Shown in pieces: positions 1,296 through 46,429 of a DNA stretch of 64,000 nt (position 1 is the stretch's first letter; each line of letters begins with the position of its first letter). The position numbers and the translations under genes were made by a program. The DNA is from Chloroflexota bacterium (lineage in GTDB: Bacteria > Chloroflexota > UBA11872 > VXOZ01), in the NCBI GenBank assembly GCA_965216245.1, contig OZ244145.1:820943-884942 (forward strand). The letters run 5' to 3'. Below the pieces are notes generated by a model, which was not told where the DNA came from, searched no databases, and saw only the letters and a list, made by a program, of their open reading frames with translations.

Positions 1296-2066
1296 CTACG
1301 CGCCAAATAGACGCGCCGCATTCTCTTTGAATAACTTCTGTTTGTACGCGTCCGCTATCTGCGTCTCGGTCTCGATGCTGAGCAACGCTGATTCATGGTA
1401 GTGCAGCGGAGAGTTGGAGCCAAACAGCACGTGGTCCGGCCCGATGGTCTTGCAGAGCTTTGCAACGTCGTGGATTGGCCCCTGCACGCGGCTGTTCTCT
1501 ACATACAGGTTATCGCGCTTATCCACGCCCTGCCAGATGCTCGTAACCTCTCGAAAACGCCCAGCAGTGACAAGAAAGCGCACCTGCGGGAAAGCGTTTA
1601 CCGTCTGGGCAATATCGCCAGCCGCAACATCCGGGACTATCACTAGACGGTGGTGATGCCGCACGTCTTCCAGGCCGATGGCAATGAGGATGAGCAGACC
1701 ATGCTCCTGCGCCATCTCCAGCAAGCGCAAGTTCTCTTGCCCAAGCAACTCATACTGGTGGTAATTGGGATGCAGGCGCAGATTCTGTACGCCAAGTTCT
1801 TCTAAGCAGATTTCCAAGTCTTCGTCCCAGCCCGGATACGCCGGATTGACGGTATACGCCGGAATGAAGCGGTCCGGATGTGTTTGCACGATCTTGTGCA
1901 GTTCGCGGTTGCCGACGAGCAGGTCTTTGAAGAAGACATTCTCCAGACGTGAAACCACAGCCTTTTCTATGCCGAGGGCATCCATCTTGCGCAGCAGGGC
2001 ATCAGGCTGAGAGCAGGGCAAGCGGCGAAACGGCCACTCGCCGACATAGGCATTACTATCGATCAT
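1296..2066 (-). CDS. Amidohydrolase-2 family (PF04909) paralog with degenerate metal ligands (MIDSNAY instead of IDVHVH; GSN instead of GTD). It is a probable non-metal or pseudoenzyme variant. The start was moved to the internal Met that aligns with the paralog N-termini.
   Basis: Fold-level similarity to the two downstream paralogs. The N-terminus MIDSNAY aligns with MKGDLVAIIDVHVHT and MNAVIIDVHVHPH. Using M16 removes the 28-bp overlap with the upstream gene. Confidence 0.6.
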   Translation of the reverse strand: MIDSNAYVGEWPFRRLPCSQPDALLRKMDALGIEKAVVSRLENVFFKDLLVGNRELHKIVQTHPDRFIPAYTVNPAYPGWDEDLEICLEELGVQNLRLHPNYHQYELLGQENLRLLEMAQEHGLLILIAIGLEDVRHHHRLVIVPDVAAGDIAQTVNAFPQVRFLVTAGRFREVTSIWQGVDKRDNLYVENSRVQGPIHDVAKLCKTIGPDHVLFGSNSPLHYHESALLSIETETQIADAYKQKLFKENAARLFGA

Positions 2067-2083
2067 GAAATCCTGCCCTTCTT

Positions 2084-2884
2084 TCAAGCCTGGTGCTGGG
2101 CCGACTTGCACGCCGCCAGCACGCGCGCCATGTTTCTGTAGAGAATCTTCTCTTTATCTTCATTCTGCAGGTCCGTGCCAAGTACTTTCGCAAGCTGTGA
2201 GGGGAACGAGCGGCCCGGCATGTCGGTGCCAAAGATTACGCGGTCAGCTCCAACATGGTCAACGAGTATGTGCACGCCAGCCGCATTGCATTCGTTACCG
2301 GCGATATCCAGCAAAACATTGGGACAACTACGGAAGACCTTAGCGCCGTATTCGTAATCACCGCCGGCATGCGCCGCAATGATGGTGGCGTTCGGATGGC
2401 GGCGCGCCATATCCGCCACTATCTCCGGCGACGATTCCCCGTAGCCTAGTCCATCTGCCTTCAGCCACGTGTGCTGCAAGGCCGGCACGCGGTAGTGCGC
2501 ACAGATTTCCAGCAAGCGGTCCACGCGTGGATCGGAGCACGGCAGCGCGTGCCACAGCTTGAGACCGACAAAGTGCTGCTCCGTCAAGCGTCTCTCTAGC
2601 TCCGCCGCCGCGGCGTCAGCATGGTAGGGGTTCACGTAGCAGAAACCGCGCACGCGCTCGGGATAGCGCTGCATGAGCGCGTACGTCTCGTCATTGGAGC
2701 GCCGGCAGAATTCCGGCGTTGGGAATGAGTAGCGAGAAGCATCAGCCACCGGCCGGATGGCGTACGTCACAAGCACCGCGTCGAATTGCTCCGCTATTTC
2801 GATCTGTTCCGCGAAGTCGTCCAACGATTTCCCTACGTCGGTATGGACGTGGACGTCAATAATCGCCACCAAATCGCCTTTCAA
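2084..2884 (-). CDS. Amidohydrolase-2 family metal-dependent hydrolase/decarboxylase (the superfamily includes ACMSD, LigW and LigI).
   Basis: IDVHVHT HxH motif, a later AHAGG His and a GTDMP Asp, with TIM-barrel amidohydrolase_2 spacing. It is a close paralog of 3027-3836. Confidence 0.75.
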   Translation of the reverse strand: MKGDLVAIIDVHVHTDVGKSLDDFAEQIEIAEQFDAVLVTYAIRPVADASRYSFPTPEFCRRSNDETYALMQRYPERVRGFCYVNPYHADAAAAELERRLTEQHFVGLKLWHALPCSDPRVDRLLEICAHYRVPALQHTWLKADGLGYGESSPEIVADMARRHPNATIIAAHAGGDYEYGAKVFRSCPNVLLDIAGNECNAAGVHILVDHVGADRVIFGTDMPGRSFPSQLAKVLGTDLQNEDKEKILYRNMARVLAACKSAQHQA

Positions 2885-2908
2885 GTCTCAAGTGGGATAG
2901 TTCGCGAT

Positions 2909-2936
2909 GTCATTCCGAGCGCAGCGAGGAATCTAG
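2909..2936. repeat. Solo terminal-repeat unit of the same family (GTCATTCCGAGCGCAGCGAGGAATCTAG) between the two amidohydrolase paralogs.
   Basis: Exact match of the 18-nt core to the 22859 and 23244 copies. Confidence 0.5.
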
Positions 2937-3026
2937 GGCCTCGGTTTGCCATCCCTCGCCAGTTCTCTGCCCAAAATGACGGCACAACGGACCTGAATTC
3001 AATAGGAGCGCATTGCGCCCAAGATT

Positions 3027-3836
3027 TCAACACTGTGTAGCAAAGATCAACGGATTCTTGATGGTCTTGGTCCCGGCCAGTACTCGCGCCATATTCCCAT
3101 AGAGAATGTTGTCTTTATCGTCTGTACTTAAGTCCGCGCCCAGCACCTTTGCCAGTTGCGATGGAAAGGAACGGCCCGGCATGTCTGTGCCGAAGATTAC
3201 ACGGTCCGCCCCCACGTGATCCACGAGTATTTCCACATAGCCGGCGTTGCACTCGTTGCCGCCAATGTCGAGCAACACGTTGTCACACGAACGAAAGACC
3301 TTCGCACCATACTCGTAGTCGCCGCCGGCGTGGGCGGCAATGATTGTGGTGCGCGGATGGCGTTTTGCCAGCGCGGCGACCATCGCCGGCGGCGATTCGC
3401 CGGTCTTCTGTCCATTCGCCTTAATCCACGTGTGCTGAAGTGCGGGCACGCGGTAGTGGGCGCAAATCTCCATGAGCGCATCGAGCCGTACATCAACGCA
3501 CGGCACCGCCACCCAGAGCTTGAGGCCGACGAAGTGCTGCTGCCCCAAACGAAAATCAAGTTCGTCACACGCCTCCCGCGCATGGCCGGGGTTCACGTAG
3601 GCGAATCCCTGCACGCGCTCAGGGTAACGCTCCATCAACACGTGAGTCTGATCGTTGCAGGCGCGGATGTTCTCCGGTGTAGGGTATTCGTGGTTGTTCC
3701 CGACCTCTACCGGCCGCACTGAGTAGGTGACAAGGTGGGCATCAAACTGCTCAGCAATAGCGATCAACTCAGCGAAGTCATCTAATTTGCGTGAAACGTG
3801 TGGGTGCACGTGTACGTCTATAATCACCGCATTCAC
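3027..3836 (-). CDS. Amidohydrolase-2 family metal-dependent hydrolase/decarboxylase (tandem paralog).
   Basis: IIDVHVHPH, AHAGGDYEYGAKVF and GTDMPGRSFPSQLAKVLG are conserved with 2084-2884. I estimate about 75-80% nucleotide identity from eyeballing aligned stretches. Confidence 0.75.
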   Translation of the reverse strand: MNAVIIDVHVHPHVSRKLDDFAELIAIAEQFDAHLVTYSVRPVEVGNNHEYPTPENIRACNDQTHVLMERYPERVQGFAYVNPGHAREACDELDFRLGQQHFVGLKLWVAVPCVDVRLDALMEICAHYRVPALQHTWIKANGQKTGESPPAMVAALAKRHPRTTIIAAHAGGDYEYGAKVFRSCDNVLLDIGGNECNAGYVEILVDHVGADRVIFGTDMPGRSFPSQLAKVLGADLSTDDKDNILYGNMARVLAGTKTIKNPLIFATQC

Positions 3837-26480: not shown

Positions 26481-27641
26481 CTAGAGGTCGGTCGTCTGCC
26501 GCTGCGCGCCATACAGCAAACCGTGGGTTAGTTGGCGATACATGAGCACCGTTCTCGCCGCAATGCGTTCTTGTGTAAACTCACTGAGAACCCGCTCTCG
26601 CCCTTGTGCGCCAAGTTTGCGCCGCAGCGACGGATCTTTGTGAAGCTTGGTCAATGTCTCCGCCAGCGCCTCTGCATCACCCTCCGGGAACGTCATGCCG
26701 CCCCGTTCCGCATCGGTGCTACCGACAATTTCAGGGATTTCTCCGGATTCCGATCCCACCACAGACACCCCACACGCCATTGCCTCGATGAGCACGCGAC
26801 CGAACTGCTCTTTCCAATTCGGCATGGTGAGAGAGGGCAAGACGCAGACGTGCATTGCCTGGTAGTGTGCCGGCATTGAATTGCTGGGCACGTGGCCGAT
26901 GAACTCAACTTTATCCTGAATTCCCAAGGATTCAGCCTGCGACCGCAGCATCGGCTCTGCCGGGCCGGTCCCAATGAGCTTCACCTGGTAGGGGAATGCG
27001 AGACGTGACGCCGCGTTGAGCAGCACGTGAATACCCTTTGCCCGGACCAACCGACCCACGTAGCCGATTCTAAAGACTTCGTCGGAATCGTCCGGCTGGG
27101 AGACCGGAGAGAAGAGGGCAGCGTCTACGCCGAATTGCGGAAAGACCGCAGACGGGCACGAGTAGCGCTTTCGGCGCAGCACCTCTTGAGCCTGCCGCGT
27201 GCCGGCCTGTGCCGCATGTGACCGCAGCAGCGAGTAAAGTTCGATGAAGTAGAATGGCGGCGGTAAAACCCGGTAGATATTTTGCCAGGCAAAGAAGATC
27301 GCCTTGGCCCCGACTCGCCTTGCCTGCCAAATCGCATGTGCCGTGGCGAAGTTGTAGGGCTCTTCATCAACGTGCACCACGTCGGGCTGCCACTCGACGA
27401 GATGACGCCGCAGGCCGGGATAGTAGTGCATGTGGTAGTGCCCATTGAAGCGCATGTGCGCAGGAACCAGCTCATAGCCGGTGGTGTAGCGAGGTTCCAA
27501 CACCTGGCGATAATCACCTTCCCGCCAATAGGGAGGCACAATTGCGCGAAGCTCGACATCCGGAAACTTGGCGATCTCTTCCATCTTGCGTTGGTACGTG
27601 GCCACTACAAGCGCCTTGGAAATGTAAAGCACGCGCATCAT
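26481..27641 (-). CDS. Glycosyltransferase family 4 (GT-B fold, group-1 glycosyl transferase).
   Basis: EAMACGVSVVGSESGEIPEIVG E-x7-E motif. Confidence 0.8.
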   Translation of the reverse strand: MMRVLYISKALVVATYQRKMEEIAKFPDVELRAIVPPYWREGDYRQVLEPRYTTGYELVPAHMRFNGHYHMHYYPGLRRHLVEWQPDVVHVDEEPYNFATAHAIWQARRVGAKAIFFAWQNIYRVLPPPFYFIELYSLLRSHAAQAGTRQAQEVLRRKRYSCPSAVFPQFGVDAALFSPVSQPDDSDEVFRIGYVGRLVRAKGIHVLLNAASRLAFPYQVKLIGTGPAEPMLRSQAESLGIQDKVEFIGHVPSNSMPAHYQAMHVCVLPSLTMPNWKEQFGRVLIEAMACGVSVVGSESGEIPEIVGSTDAERGGMTFPEGDAEALAETLTKLHKDPSLRRKLGAQGRERVLSEFTQERIAARTVLMYRQLTHGLLYGAQRQTTDL

Positions 27642-28768
27642 TTCACCTGCTTGTAGACCGCAATGGTCTGTGCGGCCGTACGCTCCCAGGAGAACGCCTG
27701 GGCTTGCGCAATCGCCCGTTCAGCGTATTGCGCTCGTTCCTGGCCGGATTCCCAAAGACGACCGATGGCTGCCGCCCAGGCTTTGGCGTCGTCTGGCGGG
27801 ACTAAGATGCCGCCTTCGCCTACCACCTCCGGCAACGACGTGGCATCGCTGCATACGACCGGTGTGCCGCAAGCCATGGCTTCTAACGGATCGAGGCCGA
27901 ATCCTTCATAGCGCGAAGGGAACACGAAGACCGTCGCGGCACGATACAAGAGCGGCTTATCCGCTTCCGGTACGCCGCCCAGAAAACGCACGCGGTGCCC
28001 TATCTCCGATTCAGTGGCTTGGCGCACCCAGTCGGGAAAGAGAGCGGCCTTTCCATGTCGCGTTCGGCCCGCAATAACAAGCGAGACATCTTCCGGTAAC
28101 TTCTCGAGCGCCGTAAAAAGTATCCCAAGGTTCTTGCGCACGTCCAGGCCGCCGAGATAGAAGAGGAATCGTTCCGGCAGATCGTAGCGCCGCCGTGCAG
28201 CCTTGACATCCTCATCTCGTAAGTCTGGCGAAAATCGTGCATCCGCGGCCAGATGCACAACGTGCACATCGTCTTCGCTAAGGTTAAGCCGCTCGATCAC
28301 GTCGCGCTTGGCGGCTTCAGAATCCGTAATGATGGCATCCGCTTTGTGCGCCGCCGCCATTACAAGGCTCGTATAGAGTCGCACGAGGGGGTTGCCGCGA
28401 TACTCAGGCAGCACAACCGGAATCAAGTCGTGAATAGTAGCTACCAGCGGAAAGCTATGGTAATGCGATGGGGCGAAGTAAGGCACGTGGCCCACTACGT
28501 CCTGGCCCGACTTAGCAGCCAGCCGGGGCCACGTTACTTGCTCCCACCACAGTTTTGCCAGGTTGCCTCGGCGCAGCAAGCCGCCCATTGGGGCGTGCGC
28601 CCGGATACCGCCGACCGGACGCATCGTATCGCGCATGAAGTAGGGCAGTTGCACAGAGACCTGAACTTCGTCGCTGCGCTTTTGCAACGCCCGCAGTAAA
28701 TGGTAGGTGTACTGCGCGCTTCCGGTGTGGAGCACATTAAGGAAATACCCATTTACGGCAATTTCCAT
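27638..28768 (-). CDS. Glycosyltransferase family 4. It overlaps the downstream GT4 by 4 bp, indicating translational coupling.
   Basis: EAMACGTPVVCSDATSLPEVVGEGG motif. Confidence 0.8.
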   Translation of the reverse strand: MEIAVNGYFLNVLHTGSAQYTYHLLRALQKRSDEVQVSVQLPYFMRDTMRPVGGIRAHAPMGGLLRRGNLAKLWWEQVTWPRLAAKSGQDVVGHVPYFAPSHYHSFPLVATIHDLIPVVLPEYRGNPLVRLYTSLVMAAAHKADAIITDSEAAKRDVIERLNLSEDDVHVVHLAADARFSPDLRDEDVKAARRRYDLPERFLFYLGGLDVRKNLGILFTALEKLPEDVSLVIAGRTRHGKAALFPDWVRQATESEIGHRVRFLGGVPEADKPLLYRAATVFVFPSRYEGFGLDPLEAMACGTPVVCSDATSLPEVVGEGGILVPPDDAKAWAAAIGRLWESGQERAQYAERAIAQAQAFSWERTAAQTIAVYKQVK

Positions 28769-28779
28769 AGTGGCGCGGG

Positions 28780-30507
28780 CTATTTCGGAAGTGCTTGTAA
28801 CGCCAGGTATGCAGGTCTCGGGTTCAAGTGTTCGTCGAGAATCCCGAAGGAATAAGCGCTGTCAGTCGGTTCGATTTGATTGGCAAAGTTCAAATTGAAA
28901 ACTACCAGTCCGGTGACATACGGAAACCTATGCTTCGCCAGTAGATAGGATTCGGCCAGATACCGCCCCTGGTCTTCGTCGGAAACCTCTACCCCATAGG
29001 GAAATTCAGGATGCAAGTTGTGCGTGGTCCATCCCATCTCCGTCAACCAGATACTCTTACCCGTGTCACCGTACTTTTGCAGCACGTCCCAGTGATTCTC
29101 AAAGCGGCGGAAGTAGAACGACCAGTGGTGTTTGTACGTGGTACCGGACGTCGAGTAGTTATCGGGCGTATCGCCCGGCGCATTATTGAAGCCATATGAG
29201 TGCAACCCGAGCACATCGAAATAGTTGCGGATTATGCCATCGCGGTACTGGTACATAGCCTCCAGGTATGCCACGTCGTCCATGGCAACTCCCTCGCGAT
29301 TGACTCCTGTGGGCGACAAGCCGCCGCTGACGACAATAGCGTTCGGATTCCCGCGCTTCACTCCCCGATAGCCCGCGCCCATGAGCTCAACGAATTCCCA
29401 TGGCGCGACCGTACCATCCCAGTTTCCGGCCAAGTTAGGCTCATTCCAGAGTTCATAGGATTGCACCTGATCGCCGTAACGCGACGCGATGATGGCCAAG
29501 AAGTTTTCAAAGTCGCCGAAATTCGCCGGCGGGCCGTTGTGGAAACTTCCAAACTGCGCCCACCACTCCTCGACGGAGCCAGCAGCGGAGCCTTGCTGTA
29601 CGGCGATTTGATTCCCTGTGGGTCGTACACGGCGCATCCAATAGGGCGATGCATAGATGCCCAGCATCACTTCCAAGCCGTGCCGGTTTGCCGCCTCTAC
29701 AATGCGGTCTACCTGGTCCCACATATACCCGCCGGGATGGAGTTCTACCGCCTTCCACTCTACTTGCTGCTTGATGCCGGTAAAGCCCGCGGCCTTTGCT
29801 AACGCGAGCACGTGCTCGATATTAGGGTCGTAGAAAAGCGAGACTTGCGCGATGAGCTTCAGTTGCGAATCTCGTGCAGGCTGGTCCACTATTGTTTGCA
29901 ACGTGCCACGCAACGAGAGGAAGGCTCGACCTAGCGGCGCCAGTTGTACCTCGTCGGGGGTGCCGGACTTGGTTGGATCATAGCGAAATACGGCTCGTTC
30001 GAAGTATTGGACCGCATGCTGCCAATCGTCATCAGCCGGTAACTCTCCGGAAATCGGCAGCCCAAACACTTGCACACCGCCGTGCTCTTGGAAAAAACGG
30101 AGGAATGCAAAGCGCACGGCATGGCCTGTCTCCGGGAAAAACCGCTGCGCAGACGTCTCTGCTACCGGTTCTTCCTGGGAGAAGAAGCGCCAGTGCGGAT
30201 AAAGCAAGCGACCCAACGGGCTGAACCGCACCTGGCCGCGCTGCGGCCACCACTCCAGCCGCGCATTCTCGAAATATTGGACGACGTGACCGTCTTCGCT
30301 TTGCTCATTAGTCAGCGGCTGTCCTAGAACGCTTTCGCCTCCCATTTGCTCGAAGTAGTCGAGCATAGCCCCATGCACAATAGTATTCGTGGCCTGAAAA
30401 TGCCTCGGCTCCGAATTGGCGAAAACCGGAGTCGGTAGGAGCATGAAGCAGGTAAAGAATAGTAGCAATCGAACATACCAACGCCGTGGGCCAATACCTT
30501 TCATCAT
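28780..30507 (-). CDS. Secreted glycoside hydrolase, clan GH-A (GH5/GH39-like). Its N-terminus carries LGFP-type repeats.
   Basis: Signal peptide. Repeated GQPL/GLPI..QYFE.A blocks match the LGFP repeat. The catalytic acid/base lies in ELWNEPN and the nucleophile in LTEMGW. Confidence 0.7.
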   Translation of the reverse strand: MMKGIGPRRWYVRLLLFFTCFMLLPTPVFANSEPRHFQATNTIVHGAMLDYFEQMGGESVLGQPLTNEQSEDGHVVQYFENARLEWWPQRGQVRFSPLGRLLYPHWRFFSQEEPVAETSAQRFFPETGHAVRFAFLRFFQEHGGVQVFGLPISGELPADDDWQHAVQYFERAVFRYDPTKSGTPDEVQLAPLGRAFLSLRGTLQTIVDQPARDSQLKLIAQVSLFYDPNIEHVLALAKAAGFTGIKQQVEWKAVELHPGGYMWDQVDRIVEAANRHGLEVMLGIYASPYWMRRVRPTGNQIAVQQGSAAGSVEEWWAQFGSFHNGPPANFGDFENFLAIIASRYGDQVQSYELWNEPNLAGNWDGTVAPWEFVELMGAGYRGVKRGNPNAIVVSGGLSPTGVNREGVAMDDVAYLEAMYQYRDGIIRNYFDVLGLHSYGFNNAPGDTPDNYSTSGTTYKHHWSFYFRRFENHWDVLQKYGDTGKSIWLTEMGWTTHNLHPEFPYGVEVSDEDQGRYLAESYLLAKHRFPYVTGLVVFNLNFANQIEPTDSAYSFGILDEHLNPRPAYLALQALPK

Positions 30508-30776
30508 GCTCTGTCTACCTCCCTAATTGCACCGCATTCTCTGCTAGGAGCGCTCAATTCCGTGTCCCGGCCATCGGCAATAGTAATCTCGCGGTATTGC
30601 CATCAACTGGGCACCGCAGAGTAACCCAATGTGGCGAGGACACAAAGCAAGCACTTTGCCACATTATAGCAGATACGGACGCCACTCCACGCTACCGATC
30701 TGTCTTCATTTCGCGAACATACTTTTAGGCGTCGCGCCGCTCTCTCGGACGCTAGACTGCCGTCCTCAATTCACTT

Positions 30777-31910
30777 TCAGCCACCGCGAACAGCACGCAC
30801 CAAATGTGCACGAAGTTCGCTCGCTGCCCGCTCCCACGTGAATCCAGCAGCGCGTTCTCTTCCCGCGGCAATGAGTTGCGCACGCTTGACTTCATCTGTA
30901 GCAAGCACCAAGAGCGCCCCGCCAATGGCATCAACGTCGTTGGGATCTACGAGGATGGCCGCCTCACCCGAGACCTCGGGCAGGGATGACGTATTCGAAG
31001 TGACTACCGGTGTGCCGCACGCCATGGCTTCGAGCACGGGCAGCCCAAAACCCTCGTACAGGCTGGGAAACACAAGAGCGCTCGCGCTGCTGTAAAGGAC
31101 CGCAAGATCCTCATCGGAATCGACGGTAGTCAGGAAGTGCACCCGCTCGGAAACGCCGTGTTCCTGCGGGGCGGCGAGTATCTGCTCGTAGAGCCAGCCC
31201 GGACGCCCCACGTGCACGAGGTGATGGGGCAGCCCAGCATCAACAACCGAGCGCATGGCCGCGATCACGCGGGCAATGTTCTTTCTTGGCTGAATTGTGC
31301 CTACTGTAAGAAAGTAGGAATACGCTATGCCATGTCGCTGAAGCACTGCCGCACGTAAGGCTGGGTTATTGCGGGAACGGAATACCCCGTCAACGCCGCA
31401 ATGAAGCACTTCAATACGGGCGGGCTCGACGTGATATGCGCCTATCAAGTCTTGCCGGGTAGCTTCCGAGTCCGCGAGCACCAATTGAGCGCGCGCGACA
31501 CTGCGCGGAACGACAGATTCCAAGTACGAACGCAAGGAATTCGGGTAGGAGTCTGGAAAGTGAAGGTATGAAAGATCGTGGACGGTGATGACGCCGGGTG
31601 CGCGCCACAGCGGCGGCAAGACGAAATCCGGCGCGTAGAAGACATCGACCCCGCCCGCGAGCAGATCGGCATAGAGAGGCAGCCGCAGCCGATGCCAGAT
31701 GCGCGTCAGCGCGCGCTCGGATAGCGGCAGATACCGATACCTCAATTTAGGAGATACGAGGCGTCGCCAATGCCCTTCTGAGAATCGTGGCATTAAGAGT
31801 GTGATTTGGTCGACGAAGGGCTGTGCTATGAGCGCACTGACAAGCGACCACGTATACCTGCCAATGCCGGCCGGTTGGGTGGCTGCGGTAAAGTCAATTC
31901 CTATTCTCAT
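30777..31910 (-). CDS. Glycosyltransferase family 4. An ATG start at 31910 (MRIGIDF) is preferred over the TTG at 31934.
   Basis: EAMACGTPVVTSNTSSLPEVSGEAA motif. Confidence 0.8.
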   Translation of the reverse strand: MRIGIDFTAATQPAGIGRYTWSLVSALIAQPFVDQITLLMPRFSEGHWRRLVSPKLRYRYLPLSERALTRIWHRLRLPLYADLLAGGVDVFYAPDFVLPPLWRAPGVITVHDLSYLHFPDSYPNSLRSYLESVVPRSVARAQLVLADSEATRQDLIGAYHVEPARIEVLHCGVDGVFRSRNNPALRAAVLQRHGIAYSYFLTVGTIQPRKNIARVIAAMRSVVDAGLPHHLVHVGRPGWLYEQILAAPQEHGVSERVHFLTTVDSDEDLAVLYSSASALVFPSLYEGFGLPVLEAMACGTPVVTSNTSSLPEVSGEAAILVDPNDVDAIGGALLVLATDEVKRAQLIAAGRERAAGFTWERAASELRAHLVRAVRGG

Positions 31911-31983
31911 GACACTAGGAACACCAAACGGCAACTCTGCTTGGAGCCTGTCGTGGCCAACCTATCCATTAGAGCTATGCCGC

Positions 31984-32397
31984 CTATATTGCACAGTCGG
32001 CGAGCCTCGCTAGCAGTTTTTTCGAGGGCTTTGGGCTACTGTAAATGCCCTTAGTCTCCCAAGACTTGGTGTGAAGCCAATCGGTCACCTCTCCTACTAT
32101 GGCAACCAGTTCGTCGTGAAGGATCAAGTACCACTTTCCTCGAACCGGAAACGTCATGTATAAGCCCTTGCACAAGTAGCTTCGGTTGATGGTTAGACGG
32201 GCCTTGAGTTGCACTTTGAGCGTCTGGGTTCCGTCTTTGTGGTATGCAAGAAAGTCTGCACCTTGCCAGTCATCGGACAACTTGAGGCAATTATACCCAT
32301 ACTCCGCAAGCAACCCAGCAACTTTCTGAAAATTGTAGATTTCCTTTTGCTTTGCATTCAGCTCATCATACTTTGCACGCTGTAATCTCACCGCCAC
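31984..32397 (-). CDS. Hypothetical 137-aa protein in a low-GC (about 48%) patch. It may have a PD-(D/E)xK nuclease-like fold (GADFLAYHKDG...LKVQLK).
   Basis: Compositional drop relative to the ~60% flanks. The ORF is intact and on the same strand as the surrounding operon. The fold call is motif-level only. Confidence 0.45.
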   Translation of the reverse strand: MAVRLQRAKYDELNAKQKEIYNFQKVAGLLAEYGYNCLKLSDDWQGADFLAYHKDGTQTLKVQLKARLTINRSYLCKGLYMTFPVRGKWYLILHDELVAIVGEVTDWLHTKSWETKGIYSSPKPSKKLLARLADCAI

Positions 32398-32409
32398 ACT
32401 ACCCCCTTC

Positions 32410-33372
32410 TCAGTGTTGCGAAGCTACTTCCGCGCGATTGCGACCCCAGAGCCGTAGGCGCGCGTGCGTGAAGTAGTAGGCTGCACCGGGAATCAGGACC
32501 AGCCAGTAACTAATGAACCGGTCGAGGATTGCCACTGCCGCTGCCATGTCCACCGGCACGCCAAGCAGCAACATTACCCCTACCATACCCCCTTCCACCG
32601 CGCCCAGGCCCCCGGGGGTGGGTGCGGCGAGCAAGAGCGCGCCTGCCGCAAAGACAAACAGCAGTTGCGGCGCCTCAAGCGAGACACCCATCGCGTTTGC
32701 CACCAGGAAGAAGCGTCCGGCTTCAGCAGCCCATGCCAGCGCAGTAAGTACAATCATGAGCCACAGTGGCTTTGTCGACGCAAAGATACCGCGCTGAAAG
32801 CGCTCGAACCGTTCGCCCAACTTATGGGGCAGCCGTGATAGGAGAGTGCTGTCCAAGCGCCAGAATAGAAACAAGCCGCCCGCCATGAGCACCGCCAAAA
32901 TTCCAACGCTCAGGAGGACTCCTCGCATCTCGCTCAGCAACTCGCCGCGCACAAAGAAGAGTGCAGCAGTTACTGCAATTGCTAGCAGAGCGAGCATATC
33001 AATCACACGCTCCGCAAGTACGCTACCCGTGGTAAGCGCGAATGAAATCCGTTCTCTGCGGCGTAGGATTAGCCCCCGGTAGAGGTCTCCCATCTTGGCG
33101 GGAATCAGATGATTAACGAACCAAGAGAGGAAAATGACCTCTCCCAATAGGCGCGTCGGGACCGTGTGGCCTAGATTTTGCAACATCCTGCGCCACCGCA
33201 CCGCCCGCGGCAGCAACGTTGTGTAGTAAACCATCAACGCAAGCAAATAGAGCCGTATGTCTATTTGCCTGATTTCGGCCCAAATTCCCCGCCAATCGAG
33301 CCCACCCAGGCGCCAAAGCGCGACCAAGAGCGCCGCCGCAACGAGAAAGGAGAAGATCGTCTGCGGACTCAA
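32410..33372 (-). CDS. Flippase-like / lysylphosphatidylglycerol-synthase-TM-domain (UPF0104, PF03706) membrane protein.
   Basis: About 8 TM helices with a conserved Gly-rich C-terminal segment (APTPGGLGAVEGGMVGV), typical of this family. It is commonly linked to GT operons. Confidence 0.65.
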   Translation of the reverse strand: MSPQTIFSFLVAAALLVALWRLGGLDWRGIWAEIRQIDIRLYLLALMVYYTTLLPRAVRWRRMLQNLGHTVPTRLLGEVIFLSWFVNHLIPAKMGDLYRGLILRRRERISFALTTGSVLAERVIDMLALLAIAVTAALFFVRGELLSEMRGVLLSVGILAVLMAGGLFLFWRLDSTLLSRLPHKLGERFERFQRGIFASTKPLWLMIVLTALAWAAEAGRFFLVANAMGVSLEAPQLLFVFAAGALLLAAPTPGGLGAVEGGMVGVMLLLGVPVDMAAAVAILDRFISYWLVLIPGAAYYFTHARLRLWGRNRAEVASQH

Positions 33373-35062: not shown

Positions 35063-35560
35063 CTACTTCACGTCCGCAGAAAAGAGAAAGTCATTGTCGC
35101 GCACGTCGCCGTGGCACTCAGTACAGCCCTCGACTTTGCCCTCGGCCTCTATCATGCCGTCGGCCGCATATTTCAGGAAGAACCACCCGTTCGCATCCGC
35201 ATTCTCGTAGCCGGCAGGCTTATACATCACTGTAACTGCGGCCAGCGTACCGTCGGGCTTGTAGTTCTCTTTGACGACCATACCGCCAACGGGAATACTC
35301 CCCGCCTTGTCTTCAATCGCCTGCATAGCGATCGCGTTGAAGTACGTGCTCAGCAAAGCGCCGTGCGGGTCCTGCCCGGTATACAAGGGCTCCGCTCCCG
35401 GCAAATGCTGCCAGGCGTTCTGATAATCGGCTGCCCCGAGATATTCTATGATGGCGGCTCCGTCGGCAGCCGGGGCCTCAGCACCCATATCCTCGGATTC
35501 TTCGGCGACTGCGCATCCCGCCAACAGCACCATCGCTCCCAAGAGCACGACACTGAGCAT
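35063..35560 (-). CDS. Haem-binding lipoprotein of the cytochrome P460 / cytochrome c'-beta family (166 aa). The start was moved to MLSVVLLGAMVLLAGC; the longer ORF to 36046 runs antisense through the crp gene.
   Basis: Signal peptide plus lipobox LAGC. A single C-terminal CTECH (CxxCH) motif and a size of 160-170 aa, as in P460 and c'-beta proteins. Confidence 0.5.
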   Translation of the reverse strand: MLSVVLLGAMVLLAGCAVAEESEDMGAEAPAADGAAIIEYLGAADYQNAWQHLPGAEPLYTGQDPHGALLSTYFNAIAMQAIEDKAGSIPVGGMVVKENYKPDGTLAAVTVMYKPAGYENADANGWFFLKYAADGMIEAEGKVEGCTECHGDVRDNDFLFSADVK

Positions 35561-35704
35561 CACGAAATTCCTGCGCAGAAGAGAAAATCTACAACGCACA
35601 CTAGCCTCCTTTTTAAACTGCGAATACAGAGAGTTGTGTATGATGATACGTAGTTGCATAGGGCAATTCTGTTGGCTGGACGACATTGACGAAAGGAGAA
35701 TTAC

Positions 35705-36436
35705 GTGAGCGCGCTGAGCAATCTGCTCCCGACCAAGAAACGCAGCCCTATCCTCAGCAAGGACGAGCGCACGGCCCTCCTCATGCGGCATCTCATTCAC
35801 GTAGAACTCTTTCGTGATCTGACGAAAGCAGAGATGGAGCGCCTCTTCGGCCACTTGCCCATGTACTCCTTTCCCAAAGACACACTTGTCTATGCTCCCG
35901 ATGACCGCAGCGAGAACCTCTACATTCTCAAGATGGGGGCCGTAGACATCTACCGTCTTAGCGAAGAAGGCAAACGCCTGAGCATCCGCCGTGTGTTCAT
36001 GGGTAGTGTGTTCGGCGAAATGGGACTGCTGGGGCAGTCGATGCACGGCTGCTTTGCCGAGACGGTCGCGCCCAGCCTCGTGTGCGTGATGACGCGTGTT
36101 GAAATGGAAAGCCTCTTAAGCCAACGACCCGATGTCGGCTTGCGCTTCTTCAAGGTAATTGGGGACCGGCTCAAGGCGCTCGAGGACCAATTGGCGCGAC
36201 TTGCGTTCAGTCCGGTGCGCGCTCGTGTGGCGACCTTTCTCCTCACACACGTAGACCCTGCCAACAAGGAAGTGCGCGGGTTCACACACGAGGAGATTGG
36301 CGATAGTATTGGGGCATTGCGCTCCACGGTCACACAAACCCTGGGCGATATGGCCCGAGTCGGTGTGTTGGAGGTAAGACACAAGTGCATCCACGTGCGT
36401 GACTTGCAAGAACTTGCTGTTTTCGTAAGGGAGTAA
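35705..36436 (+). CDS. Crp/Fnr family transcriptional regulator (cNMP-binding domain plus C-terminal HTH). It has a GTG start with an AGGAGA RBS.
   Basis: C-terminal HTH ([26 protein letters not shown]) and an N-terminal beta-roll region. Confidence 0.75.
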
Positions 36437-44959: not shown

Positions 44960-46429
44960 GTGGCGGATCTCCCACAAAGTGAGCTAAGACTTGGTGTCGG
45001 CGCCGAGCGCATCAACCCGCCTCTCGGCGTGCCGCTGCCGTTAGCCTATTCCGGCGGCGGCTCACCGGTTGCAGTAGAGGGCCGGTACGATGACTGCTGG
45101 GCGCGGGCGCTGGTGCTGCAGCAAGACGATATCCGTCTAGCGCTCGTCTCGGTTGACCTCTGCACCATGCGCGACGACCAGTACCAAGCAATAGTCGACC
45201 GCATCGCCGTCCGCTGCCGGATCCCTGCCAAAAACATTCTTATTGCGTGTACGCACAATCATTCCAATGCGTCGCTCTTAGAGCCGTTCGATGCGCCGCC
45301 CTCGCCATGGCAGGAAACCCTGAATGACCTGATCGTCTCTGCCGTCTATCAAGCATCCCGGAATTTGGAGCCAGTGTCTCGTATCCGCATCGCTACGGCA
45401 AAGTACGGACGCGTCGCGCATAACCGGCGCGTGGTGCTGCCGGATGTCTGCGACGAAGTCGAAGTCGTGTGCATGCTCATCGGCGCTGAACCGAAATGGG
45501 AAGCCATTGTAGAGCGGTTGGCAGTCACGCTAGGAACGACACGGGAACAGTTGGGCATCTCGAGCGAACCCATAAAGCCCCAAGGGATTGTAGACGATGC
45601 CCTAAGACTGTTGACCTTCGAATCCGGCGAGGGCAAGACGCTAGCCAGCATCGTGAGTGCCGCATGTCACCCGGTAACCCACAGCTTCGCCGACCGGCAT
45701 ACGTGCGCCGACTACCCCGGTTATCTTGTAAGGCTAGTGGAGCATGAGTTGGGTGGGATGGGGCTCTTCCTGCAAGGCTGCAGCGGCGACGTGCGCCCGC
45801 GCTATCGCGAATCTGTATATGCGGAAGTAGAACGGGTAGGCCGACAGTTCGGCAGCGCATTGCTCCAAGCGGTGAGCAGGCTGCAGGACGCCGAGGGGCC
45901 GCTCGTTATCGGCGCAGTTAGGCAACAGGTCGAACTGCCGTTGAAGCAGTACCAAACGCGCGAACAGCGGCAGTCCAGACTTGATGAGCTGGAGCTAGCG
46001 CTGGGGAAGATGGCTCAAACTCCGGTGGCTGGCACCGCAGTCATCCGGGAACGTTGGGCCGTATATCAGGAATGCGCGTTTTTACGCTACCAATTGCGGT
46101 GGGGCGATTTGGAAACCCGGCAGACAGACTTGAAACGCCAAAGTGTCGGAGCGATGCTGCAGGCCGTTCGGCTGGGAAACGTACTCTTGCTCACCTCGCC
46201 CGCAGAGGTCTTTGCCACGACGGGCATAGAACTCTCCGCCTGGGCGGCAGAACAGGGCTGGCAAGGCAGTATCGTCTCATCCTGCACGAACGGGTACATC
46301 AACTACATCCCACCCCGCGCAGAGGCGGAGCGGGGCGGCTTCGAGCCAAGCTGTACCATGCTCGCTCCAGGCTCATGCGAACAGATGGTCGTCGCATTGG
46401 AGGCGCTGGGGCAGCAGCTCTCGGACTAG
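44960..46429 (+). CDS. Neutral/alkaline non-lysosomal ceramidase-like hydrolase (PF04734-like). It has a GTG start.
   Basis: The block order WARALV..R.ALVSVDL....NILIACTHNHS matches the conserved N-terminal ceramidase blocks (WARAFV..AFVS.DL..NVLLSATHTHSGP), which I recall rather than searched. Confidence 0.5.
   Translation: MADLPQSELRLGVGAERINPPLGVPLPLAYSGGGSPVAVEGRYDDCWARALVLQQDDIRLALVSVDLCTMRDDQYQAIVDRIAVRCRIPAKNILIACTHNHSNASLLEPFDAPPSPWQETLNDLIVSAVYQASRNLEPVSRIRIATAKYGRVAHNRRVVLPDVCDEVEVVCMLIGAEPKWEAIVERLAVTLGTTREQLGISSEPIKPQGIVDDALRLLTFESGEGKTLASIVSAACHPVTHSFADRHTCADYPGYLVRLVEHELGGMGLFLQGCSGDVRPRYRESVYAEVERVGRQFGSALLQAVSRLQDAEGPLVIGAVRQQVELPLKQYQTREQRQSRLDELELALGKMAQTPVAGTAVIRERWAVYQECAFLRYQLRWGDLETRQTDLKRQSVGAMLQAVRLGNVLLLTSPAEVFATTGIELSAWAAEQGWQGSIVSSCTNGYINYIPPRAEAERGGFEPSCTMLAPGSCEQMVVALEALGQQLSD

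Follow-up and report, generated by a model that had tools for sequence, protein, structure and literature searches.

A UPF0104, glycosyltransferase and GH39-like hydrolase gene block of Chloroflexota as the candidate core of a cell-surface glycoconjugate pathway

Introduction

Almost nothing is known of the envelope glycans of Chloroflexota, an abundant phylum most of whose members have not been cultivated. A described locus that invites comparison is the Psl locus of Pseudomonas aeruginosa, which encodes PslG, an enzyme from family 39 of the glycoside hydrolases (GH39), the glycosyltransferase family 4 (GT4) enzymes PslF, PslH and PslI, the Wzy-type protein PslJ and the Wzx-type protein PslK. 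Here we analysed a block of six open reading frames (ORFs) at positions 26481-33372, on the minus strand, of a 64,000-nt stretch of a Chloroflexota contig, hereafter the window. The block encodes a UPF0104 membrane protein, three glycosyltransferases (GT4a, GT4b and GT4c), a hydrolase with a predicted signal peptide (hereafter GH) and a protein of 137 residues, orf137.

Translocation activity in the UPF0104 family has been shown for MprF, and is predicted for GpgF and archaeal members (PMC12713373, PMC5898192). In GpgSDF, a UPF0104 protein is partnered with a glycosyltransferase (PMC12713373), and for archaeal AglD/COG0392 a link between UPF0104 and glycosyltransferases is predicted (PMC5898192). 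Moreover, fusions of PplT to GT-B domains, in Chloroflexi among others, and to O-antigen-ligase domains have been reported (bioRxiv 10.1101/2022.03.11.483950). A preliminary description of the block, made from the DNA sequence alone, had called the pairing of a UPF0104 protein with glycosyltransferases atypical; these documented or predicted couplings do not bear that out (PMC5898192, PMC12713373, bioRxiv 10.1101/2022.03.11.483950).

We consider it somewhat probable that the block forms the core of a pathway for a cell-surface glycoconjugate, whose glycan would be assembled on a lipid, flipped by UPF0104 and trimmed outside the membrane by the GH39-like enzyme. Functional statements below rest on sequence, predicted structure and gene context.

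Results

The gene order is conserved among close relatives

A search with the GH recovered 13 loci from Chloroflexota metagenome-assembled genomes (MAGs), taken at one genome per species, with GH identities of 68-98%. Sponge-/coral-derived bins are among them (SB0662_bin_44, Plut_88905), and the locus closest to the window, on chromosome OZ244922.1, shares 98% GH identity. As tblastn with the window proteins showed, all loci of sufficient length have the genes arranged alike: an M42 peptidase gene, then UPF0104-GT4c-GH-GT4b-GT4a, then the genes of NAD kinase and RecN, with protein identities dropping to 68-72% among these syntenic loci. The block is a stable unit of this lineage and no chance juxtaposition, because its order is held in 13 species-level genomes and recurs in the distant loci described below.

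The genes that flank the block are housekeeping or catabolic. A check of the flanks for export and polymerization genes, proposed in the preliminary description, found no priming transferase, Wzx, Wzy, Wzz, glycan ABC exporter or LCP gene across the 64-kb window. Likewise, the 13 syntenic loci contain neither a priming phosphoglycosyl transferase nor a Wzy_C gene.

Distant relatives carry the same core within a larger cluster

UPF0104 homologues with only 33-43% identity also adjoin glycosyltransferase genes. GT4c orthologues (41-49% identity) directly follow UPF0104 in L020, L021, L023, L025, L026, L032, L038, L047 and L081; as far as the sequence extends, GT4b orthologues (37-43%) come next in seven loci, and GT4a orthologues (45-47%) end the run in five (L023, L026, L032, L047 and L081). 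The order UPF0104-GT4c-GT4b(-GT4a) is thus found at 33-49% identity in L020, L021, L023, L026, L032, L047 and L081, and no GT4 gene follows UPF0104 in L022. The carriers of these extended clusters are mostly unclassified metagenomic bacteria, the one classified example being a member of Chloroflexota.

Pfam searches of the region 5' of UPF0104 in the extended clusters identified a Wzy_C gene, an NAD-dependent epimerase/dehydratase gene and a second Wzy_C gene. The locus L023 contains twelve co-directional genes that run from one GH gene to a second, including a GT-C glycosyltransferase of the PMT_2 family and a methyltransferase. Three loci encode Wzy_C proteins of ~1000 residues with an in-frame GH domain (L020 3894-7034, L021 2607-5615 and L022 2037-5153). 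In these fusions the GH domain lies N-terminal to a Wzy_C body of ~10 transmembrane (TM) segments, and the called ORFs of L020 and L022 begin with a TM anchor. The fused GH domain shares 25-27% identity with the GH of the window, with the WNEPN motif and the nucleophile Glu conserved. We know of no earlier description of such a GH39-like/Wzy_C fusion.

No gene for a Wzx-type protein or a priming transferase was found in the annotated extended clusters (the whole locus for L020-L023, the main ORFs for L047), which leaves UPF0104 as their sole candidate translocase. The suggestion of a non-canonical export route in the preliminary description gains support from these orthologous clusters, which combine Wzy_C and GT-C proteins and lack Wzx. 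Since they carry two Wzy_C genes and an epimerase gene around the same core, the block of the window is, as read from gene content, a reduced and rearranged variant without Wzy_C and epimerase, and with the GH gene placed between GT4c and GT4b. The larger cluster had escaped the preliminary description, which had taken it for an exopolysaccharide/glycoconjugate locus unless it adjoined genes of lipopolysaccharide or teichoic acid; that proviso applies in part, as the distant clusters hold genes of the O-antigen-ligase family (Wzy_C). Given these Wzy_C genes, what is made may be a glycan attached to the wall or anchored by a lipid, and not a free exopolysaccharide.

The Wzy_C family includes the O-oligosaccharyltransferases (O-OTases) PglL and PilO. 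The flipped oligosaccharide could accordingly be moved to S-layer or other surface proteins by PglL-like Wzy_C O-OTases, which for the window would be encoded elsewhere. Such protein O-glycosylation would fit the two Wzy_C paralogues and the PMT_2 GT-C protein of the extended clusters, as well as the tie between archaeal UPF0104 and S-layer N-glycosylation (PMC5898192). However, the window encodes no OTase or target protein, and a putatively wall-tethered endo-glycanase suits polymer processing better, so that we regard this alternative as improbable.

UPF0104 is a polytopic member of the flippase-like family

The UPF0104 protein matches LPG_synthase_TM (PF03706) with 167 bits against a cut-off of 33 over residues 7-296 (290 residues), and the NCBIfam model TIGR00374 "flippase-like domain" with 112 bits against a cut-off of 43, in line with the identity first given to it (UPF0104, LPG-synthase-TM-like). 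It is polytopic, with at least seven hydrophobic segments, and 24 columns, many of them charged, are invariant across 27 homologues. Membership of the MprF, GpgF (GpgSDF) and HpnL subfamilies was tried and rejected, as all scores fall far under the NCBIfam cut-offs. By analogy with the characterized and predicted members of its family, the UPF0104 protein is a candidate translocase of a lipid-linked glycan.

Three predicted soluble GT4 enzymes that would precede the proposed translocation step

The three glycosyltransferases have the features of the GT4 family, namely a C-terminal Glycos_transf_1 domain (Pfam; 120 bits in GT4a and GT4b, 110 bits in GT4c), a GT4-type N-terminal domain and an intact EX7E motif (residue 278 in GT4a, 288 in GT4b and 294 in GT4c). 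Glyco_transf_4 exceeds its 28.5-bit cut-off in GT4b (57 bits) and GT4c (56 bits). The N-terminal half of GT4a stays below threshold (Glyco_trans_4_4, 24.6 against 29.7 bits; Glyco_transf_4, 18.3 against 28.5 bits), and its sequence appears only weakly GT4-like. No TM or hydrophobic segment was detected in any of the three. In the PDB they match MshA, PimA, PimB', GlgM and BshA.

None of the more specific identities tried (MshA, PimA, glycogen synthase, HpsO) could be assigned, as the scores are under the NCBIfam equivalog cut-offs; GT4a reaches 226 bits over its full length with EPS_HpsO, whose cut-off is 575 bits. Some Pfam matches bear the label "GT4-conflict", and a defence-system reading of them was dismissed since PADLOC gave no hits. 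The start of GT4c is probably the ATG at 31910 (M9) rather than the annotated one: the alignments of most relatives begin no earlier than residues 7-9, those of three at residues 3-4, and those of L001 and L004 at residue 1.

The matches to PimA and PimB' are among several points that fit the main rival of the proposed pathway, that is, a membrane glycolipid pathway. There, the GT4 enzymes would glycosylate diacylglycerol, phosphatidylglycerol (PG) or phosphatidylinositol directly, in the manner of PimA/PimB, Mgs or GpgS; UPF0104 would flip the tri-glycosyl lipid, no polymer would form, and the GH would turn over or remodel the head group. The want of a priming phosphoglycosyl transferase and of Wzy_C in the window and the 13 syntenic loci is consistent with it, as is the lack of a priming transferase in the annotated extended clusters. 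In addition, the UPF0104 partners with experimental support are lipids, namely lysyl-PG (Lys-PG), glucosaminyl-PG (GlcN-PG) and the HexSDF product (PMC12713373). A PlsC-type acyltransferase gene lies two genes upstream of the L047 cluster, and a glycerol-3-phosphate dehydrogenase gene immediately upstream of that in L020. Nevertheless, the orthologous cores are embedded among a GT-C protein and a pair of Wzy_C proteins, all of which have polymers or lipid-linked oligosaccharides as substrates; the GH is of the endo-acting PslG type and fused to Wzy_C in relatives; and scores with the equivalog models of GpgS and GpgF are far under their cut-offs, with no deacetylase in the block. Weighing both sides, we judge the glycolipid pathway fairly unlikely. 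Less likely still are O-glycosylation of proteins and a catabolic GH that is in the block by location only (see below).

The GH is a PslG-like enzyme of clan GH-A

The GH matches the Pfam Cellulase/GH5 model with 33 bits, whereas the Pfam GH39 model matches only one of 36 GH homologues, at 0.0046. Searches against the PDB gave a different picture. A profile of the 36 sequences matched PslG (5bx9, 1e-29) and the Bacteroides enzyme BcGH39 (5jvk, 4e-25), followed by GH39 xylosidases (1e-10 to 1e-8) and by GH10, GH5 and GH42 enzymes (1e-7 or weaker); the single sequence matched 5jvk at 1.9e-13 and PslG at 3.9e-10. An AlphaFold2 model of the GH has a predicted local distance difference test (pLDDT) score of 84, and its top four Foldseek matches are three PslG structures and BcGH39 (E 5.6e-17 to 7e-16), the next being GH10 enzymes at 1e-10. 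Since PslG and BcGH39 are the best matches by sequence, profile and fold, the GH is assigned by these comparisons to the PslG branch of GH39-like enzymes in clan GH-A.

Both motifs first noted are there, NEP as WNEPN with E356 and TEMGW with E490, and N355, E356, H436 and E490 are invariant across the 36-sequence alignment. In the profile alignment, E356 pairs with PslG chain residue 139 (E165) and E490 with chain residue 250 (E276), which are the acid/base and the nucleophile of PslG, respectively (PMC11912335). The likeness to PslG drawn in the preliminary description is borne out by sequence and fold. The C-terminal β-sandwich of PslG and the GH39 xylosidases was not found in the GH, whose last residue, 575, still belongs to the barrel; accordingly, the alignment with PslG reaches no further than chain residue 328-330 of 416. 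At the N-terminus, a single hydrophobic segment (residues 12-30) followed by VFA|NS reads as a signal peptide, and the GH is thus predicted to be secreted.

Two other assignments were rejected. A plain GH5 cellulase, as in the Pfam label, is disfavoured by the much stronger GH39 matches in the PDB profile search and in the fold comparison. A peptidoglycan hydrolase, which the preliminary description had named as the outcome that would speak against its view, finds no lysozyme or amidase family among the sequence, profile and fold matches, the best of which are the GH39 enzymes PslG and BcGH39. Anchors of the LysM or LGFP type only indicate location.

A large group of GH catalytic-domain homologues of ~430 residues (P0056-P0089), from genomes assembled into ~3.5-Mb contigs, starts with RRRLLAL...AACG. 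This start looks like a Tat signal with a lipobox, which would make the enzyme a membrane-anchored lipoprotein elsewhere. In an Anaerolineae MAG, ftsZ and a LytR_cpsA_psr (LCP) gene flank the gene of a GH39-like homologue with three LysM domains (L019 10001-11752). In another MAG (L016 10001-14389), three tandem GH39-like paralogues are followed by a GT2 glycosyltransferase gene and a methyltransferase gene.

The N-terminal module of the GH is a divergent LGFP repeat

Residues 33-200 of the GH form two repeats of ~75 residues with the pattern F.ETGH..G.F..yW...GGl..fGyPisE...VQYFERarFE.HPE. Pfam LGFP (PF08310) scores 21.6 bits (E 2.9e-4), just below the gathering score of 22 bits, and reaches E<=0.01 in four of the 36 GH homologues. 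A sequence search of the module against the PDB gave no match. A separate model of the module (pLDDT 88) has its sole significant PDB fold matches in the LGFP domain of Corynebacterium glutamicum MytA (6swz and 6sx4; E 8e-6 to 1.4e-5, probability 1.00), with a low global TM-score (0.29-0.37). Using phmmer, residues 33-200 retrieved 5193 proteins from 1.84 billion cluster representatives, 2627 of them at E<=1e-10. Among 80 module-bearing proteins that were scanned, 21 contain Pfam LGFP (best 3e-15), and the partner domains in these 80 include Amidase_3, SpoIID, Peptidase_S11, M23, LysM, PMT_2 and GH113.

Taken together, the transitive homology and the MytA LGFP fold identify the module, by sequence and model, as a divergent LGFP repeat. 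The LGFP repeats had thus been assigned correctly at first, although in a divergent form only. Because the module is joined elsewhere to Amidase_3, SpoIID, Peptidase_S11, M23 and LysM, it would be a general module for envelope or wall targeting, as judged by its partners. Compared to MytA, the GH shares the motif logic GG..LG.P...Q.F and the attachment of the module to a secreted envelope enzyme. It differs in that two repeats of ~75 residues stand at the N-terminus rather than the C-terminus and that the host belongs to Chloroflexota, and the low TM-score indicates a different packing of the repeats.

Organization of the block and the GH upstream region

The coordinates of the block are collected in Table 1. 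All five genes listed in the preliminary description, including the three GT4 genes, are present on the same strand, and the 4-bp overlap it reported corresponds to an ATGA at the junction of GT4b (stop) and GT4a (start), through which GT4a is, by its sequence, translationally coupled to GT4b. Two elements are additions to that description, namely orf137 and a promoter-like motif in the spacer between GT4c and GH. A scan with Rfam revealed no RNA families in the window.

Table 1. Features of the block, in the order of transcription on the minus strand
Feature	Position	Strand	Remarks
UPF0104 / PplT / MprF-flippase-domain membrane protein, stand-alone	32410-33372	-	320 aa, first gene of block
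orf137, between UPF0104 and GT4c	31984-32397	-	137 aa
GT4c, predicted cytoplasmic retaining GT-B glycosyltransferase	30777-31934	-	
Extended -10-like promoter motif, TATCTGCTATAATGTG	30660-30675	-	~150 nt 5' of GH start
Shine-Dalgarno of GH, GGAGGTAG	30515-30523	-	conserved
GH39-like (PslG-like), predicted secreted retaining glycanase	28780-30507	-	575 aa
GH predicted signal peptide	30418-30507	-	aa 1-30
GH two LGFP-like repeats	29908-30411	-	aa 33-200
GH (β/α)8 catalytic domain	28783-29865	-	aa ~215-575
GT4b, predicted cytoplasmic retaining GT-B glycosyltransferase	27638-28768	-	
GT4a, predicted cytoplasmic retaining GT-B glycosyltransferase	26481-27641	-	HpsO-like subfamily

The GT4c-GH spacer is 269 bp long in the window, ranges from 203 to 310 bp over the window and the 13 other genomes, and is mostly divergent. 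Besides the Shine-Dalgarno, the sole strongly conserved stretch among the 14 genomes is a near-invariant TCTG(C/G)TATAAT. A generic scan for promoters and terminators gave counts at or below the shuffle expectation, and had passed over this motif because it lacks a -35 match. The conservation of the -10-like motif and the Shine-Dalgarno within a divergent spacer suggests that GH-GT4b-GT4a has an internal promoter of its own with a ~140-nt 5' leader, and that the GH gene arrived together with its 5' region.

This upstream region bears on a further alternative, in which the GH would be a nutrient-acquisition enzyme that acts on host or dissolved polysaccharide and was merely inserted into a glycosyltransferase operon. 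The promoter-like motif and the insertion-like site between GT4c and GT4b would agree with such an origin, and distant homologues stand alone in unrelated contexts. Sponge Chloroflexi are, in addition, rich in carbohydrate-active enzymes for the degradation of dissolved organic matter (DOM) (PMC6306507). By contrast, the position of the gene is fixed in 13 genomes, with only 11 nt between the GH stop and the ATG of GT4b, and the orthologous clusters show independent recurrences of GH39-like domains, some of them within fusion proteins. The homologues carry anchors (LGFP, LysM, Tat-lipobox) instead of substrate-binding carbohydrate-binding modules, and one with a LysM anchor is encoded between FtsZ and an LCP ligase. 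A nutrient role for the GH therefore seems to us a slim prospect.

The small gene orf137 is shared by the window with L001 and L004, the two closest relatives, and is missing from the 11 other syntenic genomes. Its family, strongly conserved across phyla, comprises 1433 homologues of ~135-145 residues, the best 120 of which are 59-99% identical; named homologues come from Nitrosomonas, Moritella and Nitrospirota, and their gene contexts are variable. Searches of Pfam/NCBIfam, PADLOC, PHROGs and the PDB returned no match to orf137, and its homologues have no Pfam match. We consider orf137 probably outside the glycan system. Its stretch GADFLAY...TLKVQLK is faintly reminiscent of PD-(D/E)xK nucleases, a putative likeness from the motif alone.

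A proposed inside-flip-outside route

We propose a three-step pathway for the host, presumably a monoderm member of Chloroflexota. At the cytoplasmic face, GT4c, GT4b and GT4a would add sugars derived from nucleotide sugars to a membrane-lipid acceptor, which might be either a glycerolipid or a polyprenyl phosphate whose priming enzyme would be encoded elsewhere. UPF0104 would then translocate the lipid-linked glycan in the place of Wzx. Outside the membrane, the Sec-secreted GH39-like enzyme, which its LGFP repeats would hold at the cell wall, might cleave or remodel the glycan of its own cluster. Such trimming could serve chain-length control, release or quality control, as is thought for PslG on Psl.

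The proposal draws on the topology of the proteins, the tight and deep gene linkage, the lack of another translocase in the extended clusters and the published precedents. The GT4 enzymes without TM segments, the polytopic UPF0104 protein and the GH with its signal peptide together fit an inside-flip-outside route. GH39-like domains with both catalytic Glu residues, moreover, recur in orthologous clusters or within their fusion proteins.

Several points weigh against this pathway. The flippase activity of GpgF is itself unverified (PMC12713373). The generic PDB matches of the GT4 enzymes do not specify donor or acceptor. The 64 kb of the window contain no Wzy_C, epimerase, priming-transferase or LCP gene. 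Homologues of the GH at 30-40% identity do not reliably adjoin glycosyltransferase genes, and the distant ones in L014, L017 and L018 have no such gene beside them; as the extended cluster of L047 has no GH either, the GH is an accessory and not an obligate part of the cluster. Finally, sponge SAR202 bacteria are reported to have no peptidoglycan genes (PMC6306507), which would call into question what the LGFP repeats bind.

A bolder version of the lipid-linked route takes in Chloroflexota and the related unclassified metagenomic bacteria. According to it, stand-alone UPF0104/PplT proteins would be the flippases of lipid-linked oligosaccharides in a Wzy_C-dependent, Wzx-less pathway with built-in cutting or transglycosylation by GH39, either as a free wall-anchored enzyme or fused to Wzy_C. 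In the lineage of the window, the pathway would have been streamlined to three GT4 enzymes, the flippase and an LGFP-anchored GH39, and might there yield a short lipid-anchored surface glycan that serves the symbiosis with sponges or corals. We offer this version tentatively and hold it to be on the doubtful side.

Other genes of the window

Apart from the block, a 489-residue ORF at 44960-46429 (plus strand) matches the N-terminal domain of neutral/alkaline ceramidase (PF04734, 36 bits). Bacteria do not usually have such a domain, and it may have to do with life in association with a host. A Cytochrome_P460 ORF (35063-36046, minus strand) and a Crp-family regulator ORF (35705-36436, plus strand) overlap by ~340 bp. 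Since the P460 domain is confined to the C-terminal third of its ORF and relatives align in two pieces, the listed ORF is probably over-extended at its 5' end. At 1296-3836 (minus strand), three tandem Amidohydro_2 paralogues adjoin genes for the solute-binding and permease components of an ABC transporter, and enolase-superfamily and GFO/IDH/MocA genes lie further along the window. This content of amidohydrolase, transporter, enolase and GFO genes resembles that described for DOM-degrading marine Chloroflexota.

Discussion

The block and its larger cluster provide a concrete, widely conserved candidate for a surface-glycan pathway in which UPF0104, and not Wzx, takes the position of the translocase. 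If this holds true, the UPF0104 flippases, so far little supported by experiment, would handle lipid-linked oligosaccharides of bacteria in addition to modified phospholipids, as predicted for archaea; the coupling of GH39 with Wzy_C would be a design principle; and the LGFP repeat would serve beyond Actinobacteria as a general module for wall targeting. The product would be a plausible host-facing surface determinant for symbionts of sponges and corals. The pathway fills a gap and overturns no current model.

The coupling of UPF0104 with glycosyltransferases is already known, and what appears to be new is the specific conserved architecture together with the reduced form and its putative LGFP anchor. 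As far as they were read, PMC5898192 and 10.1101/2022.03.11.483950 describe neither the Wzy_C-GH39 fusion nor this gene order. Full-text searches of the literature on Chloroflexi with LGFP and with sponge and glycan did not turn up the reduced LGFP-anchored form or the breadth of the module, and the Wzy_C-GH39 architecture was not among the subjects searched.

Among known systems, the Psl locus resembles the block in placing several GT4 enzymes beside a membrane- or wall-associated retaining GH39 endo-glycanase whose catalytic Glu pair is aligned with that of the GH. Wzy_C proteins, too, are encoded in relatives of the window cluster. The two loci differ in that the window block lacks a PslA-type priming transferase, a Wzx protein (PslK) and the PCP and OPX components, with UPF0104 at the position of the translocase. 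The GH, furthermore, has no C-terminal β-sandwich and bears a putative LGFP anchor instead of the N-terminal TM helix of PslG, and the host belongs to Chloroflexota and is not a diderm proteobacterium. The block does not qualify as a Wzx/Wzy locus either, as the 64-kb window has no priming transferase, Wzx or Wzy, and Wzy_C appears only in the distant clusters.

Similar to the block, GpgSDF of P. aeruginosa, which makes GlcN-PG, and HexSDF of Clostridioides difficile combine a GT4 enzyme with a stand-alone UPF0104 protein that is a predicted flippase, and synthesis at the cytoplasmic face is proposed to precede flipping (PMC12713373). Compared to them, the block has three GT4 enzymes rather than one, no deacetylase, an extracellular GH and Wzy_C in its orthologous clusters. 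Assignment to GpgSDF fails by a wide score difference (GlcN_PG_synth, 64-76 bits against 480; GlcN_PG_flip, 15.5 against 320), and here too the missing deacetylase counts.

Archaeal AglD/COG0392 and the PplT fusions share with the present cluster the coupling of UPF0104 to glycosyltransferases and to PMT/STT3-like GT-C proteins, and flipping of lipid-linked saccharides is predicted for them (PMC5898192, 10.1101/2022.03.11.483950). In contrast, the UPF0104 protein of the window is a stand-alone bacterial protein, encoded together with three GT4 enzymes and a GH39-like hydrolase.

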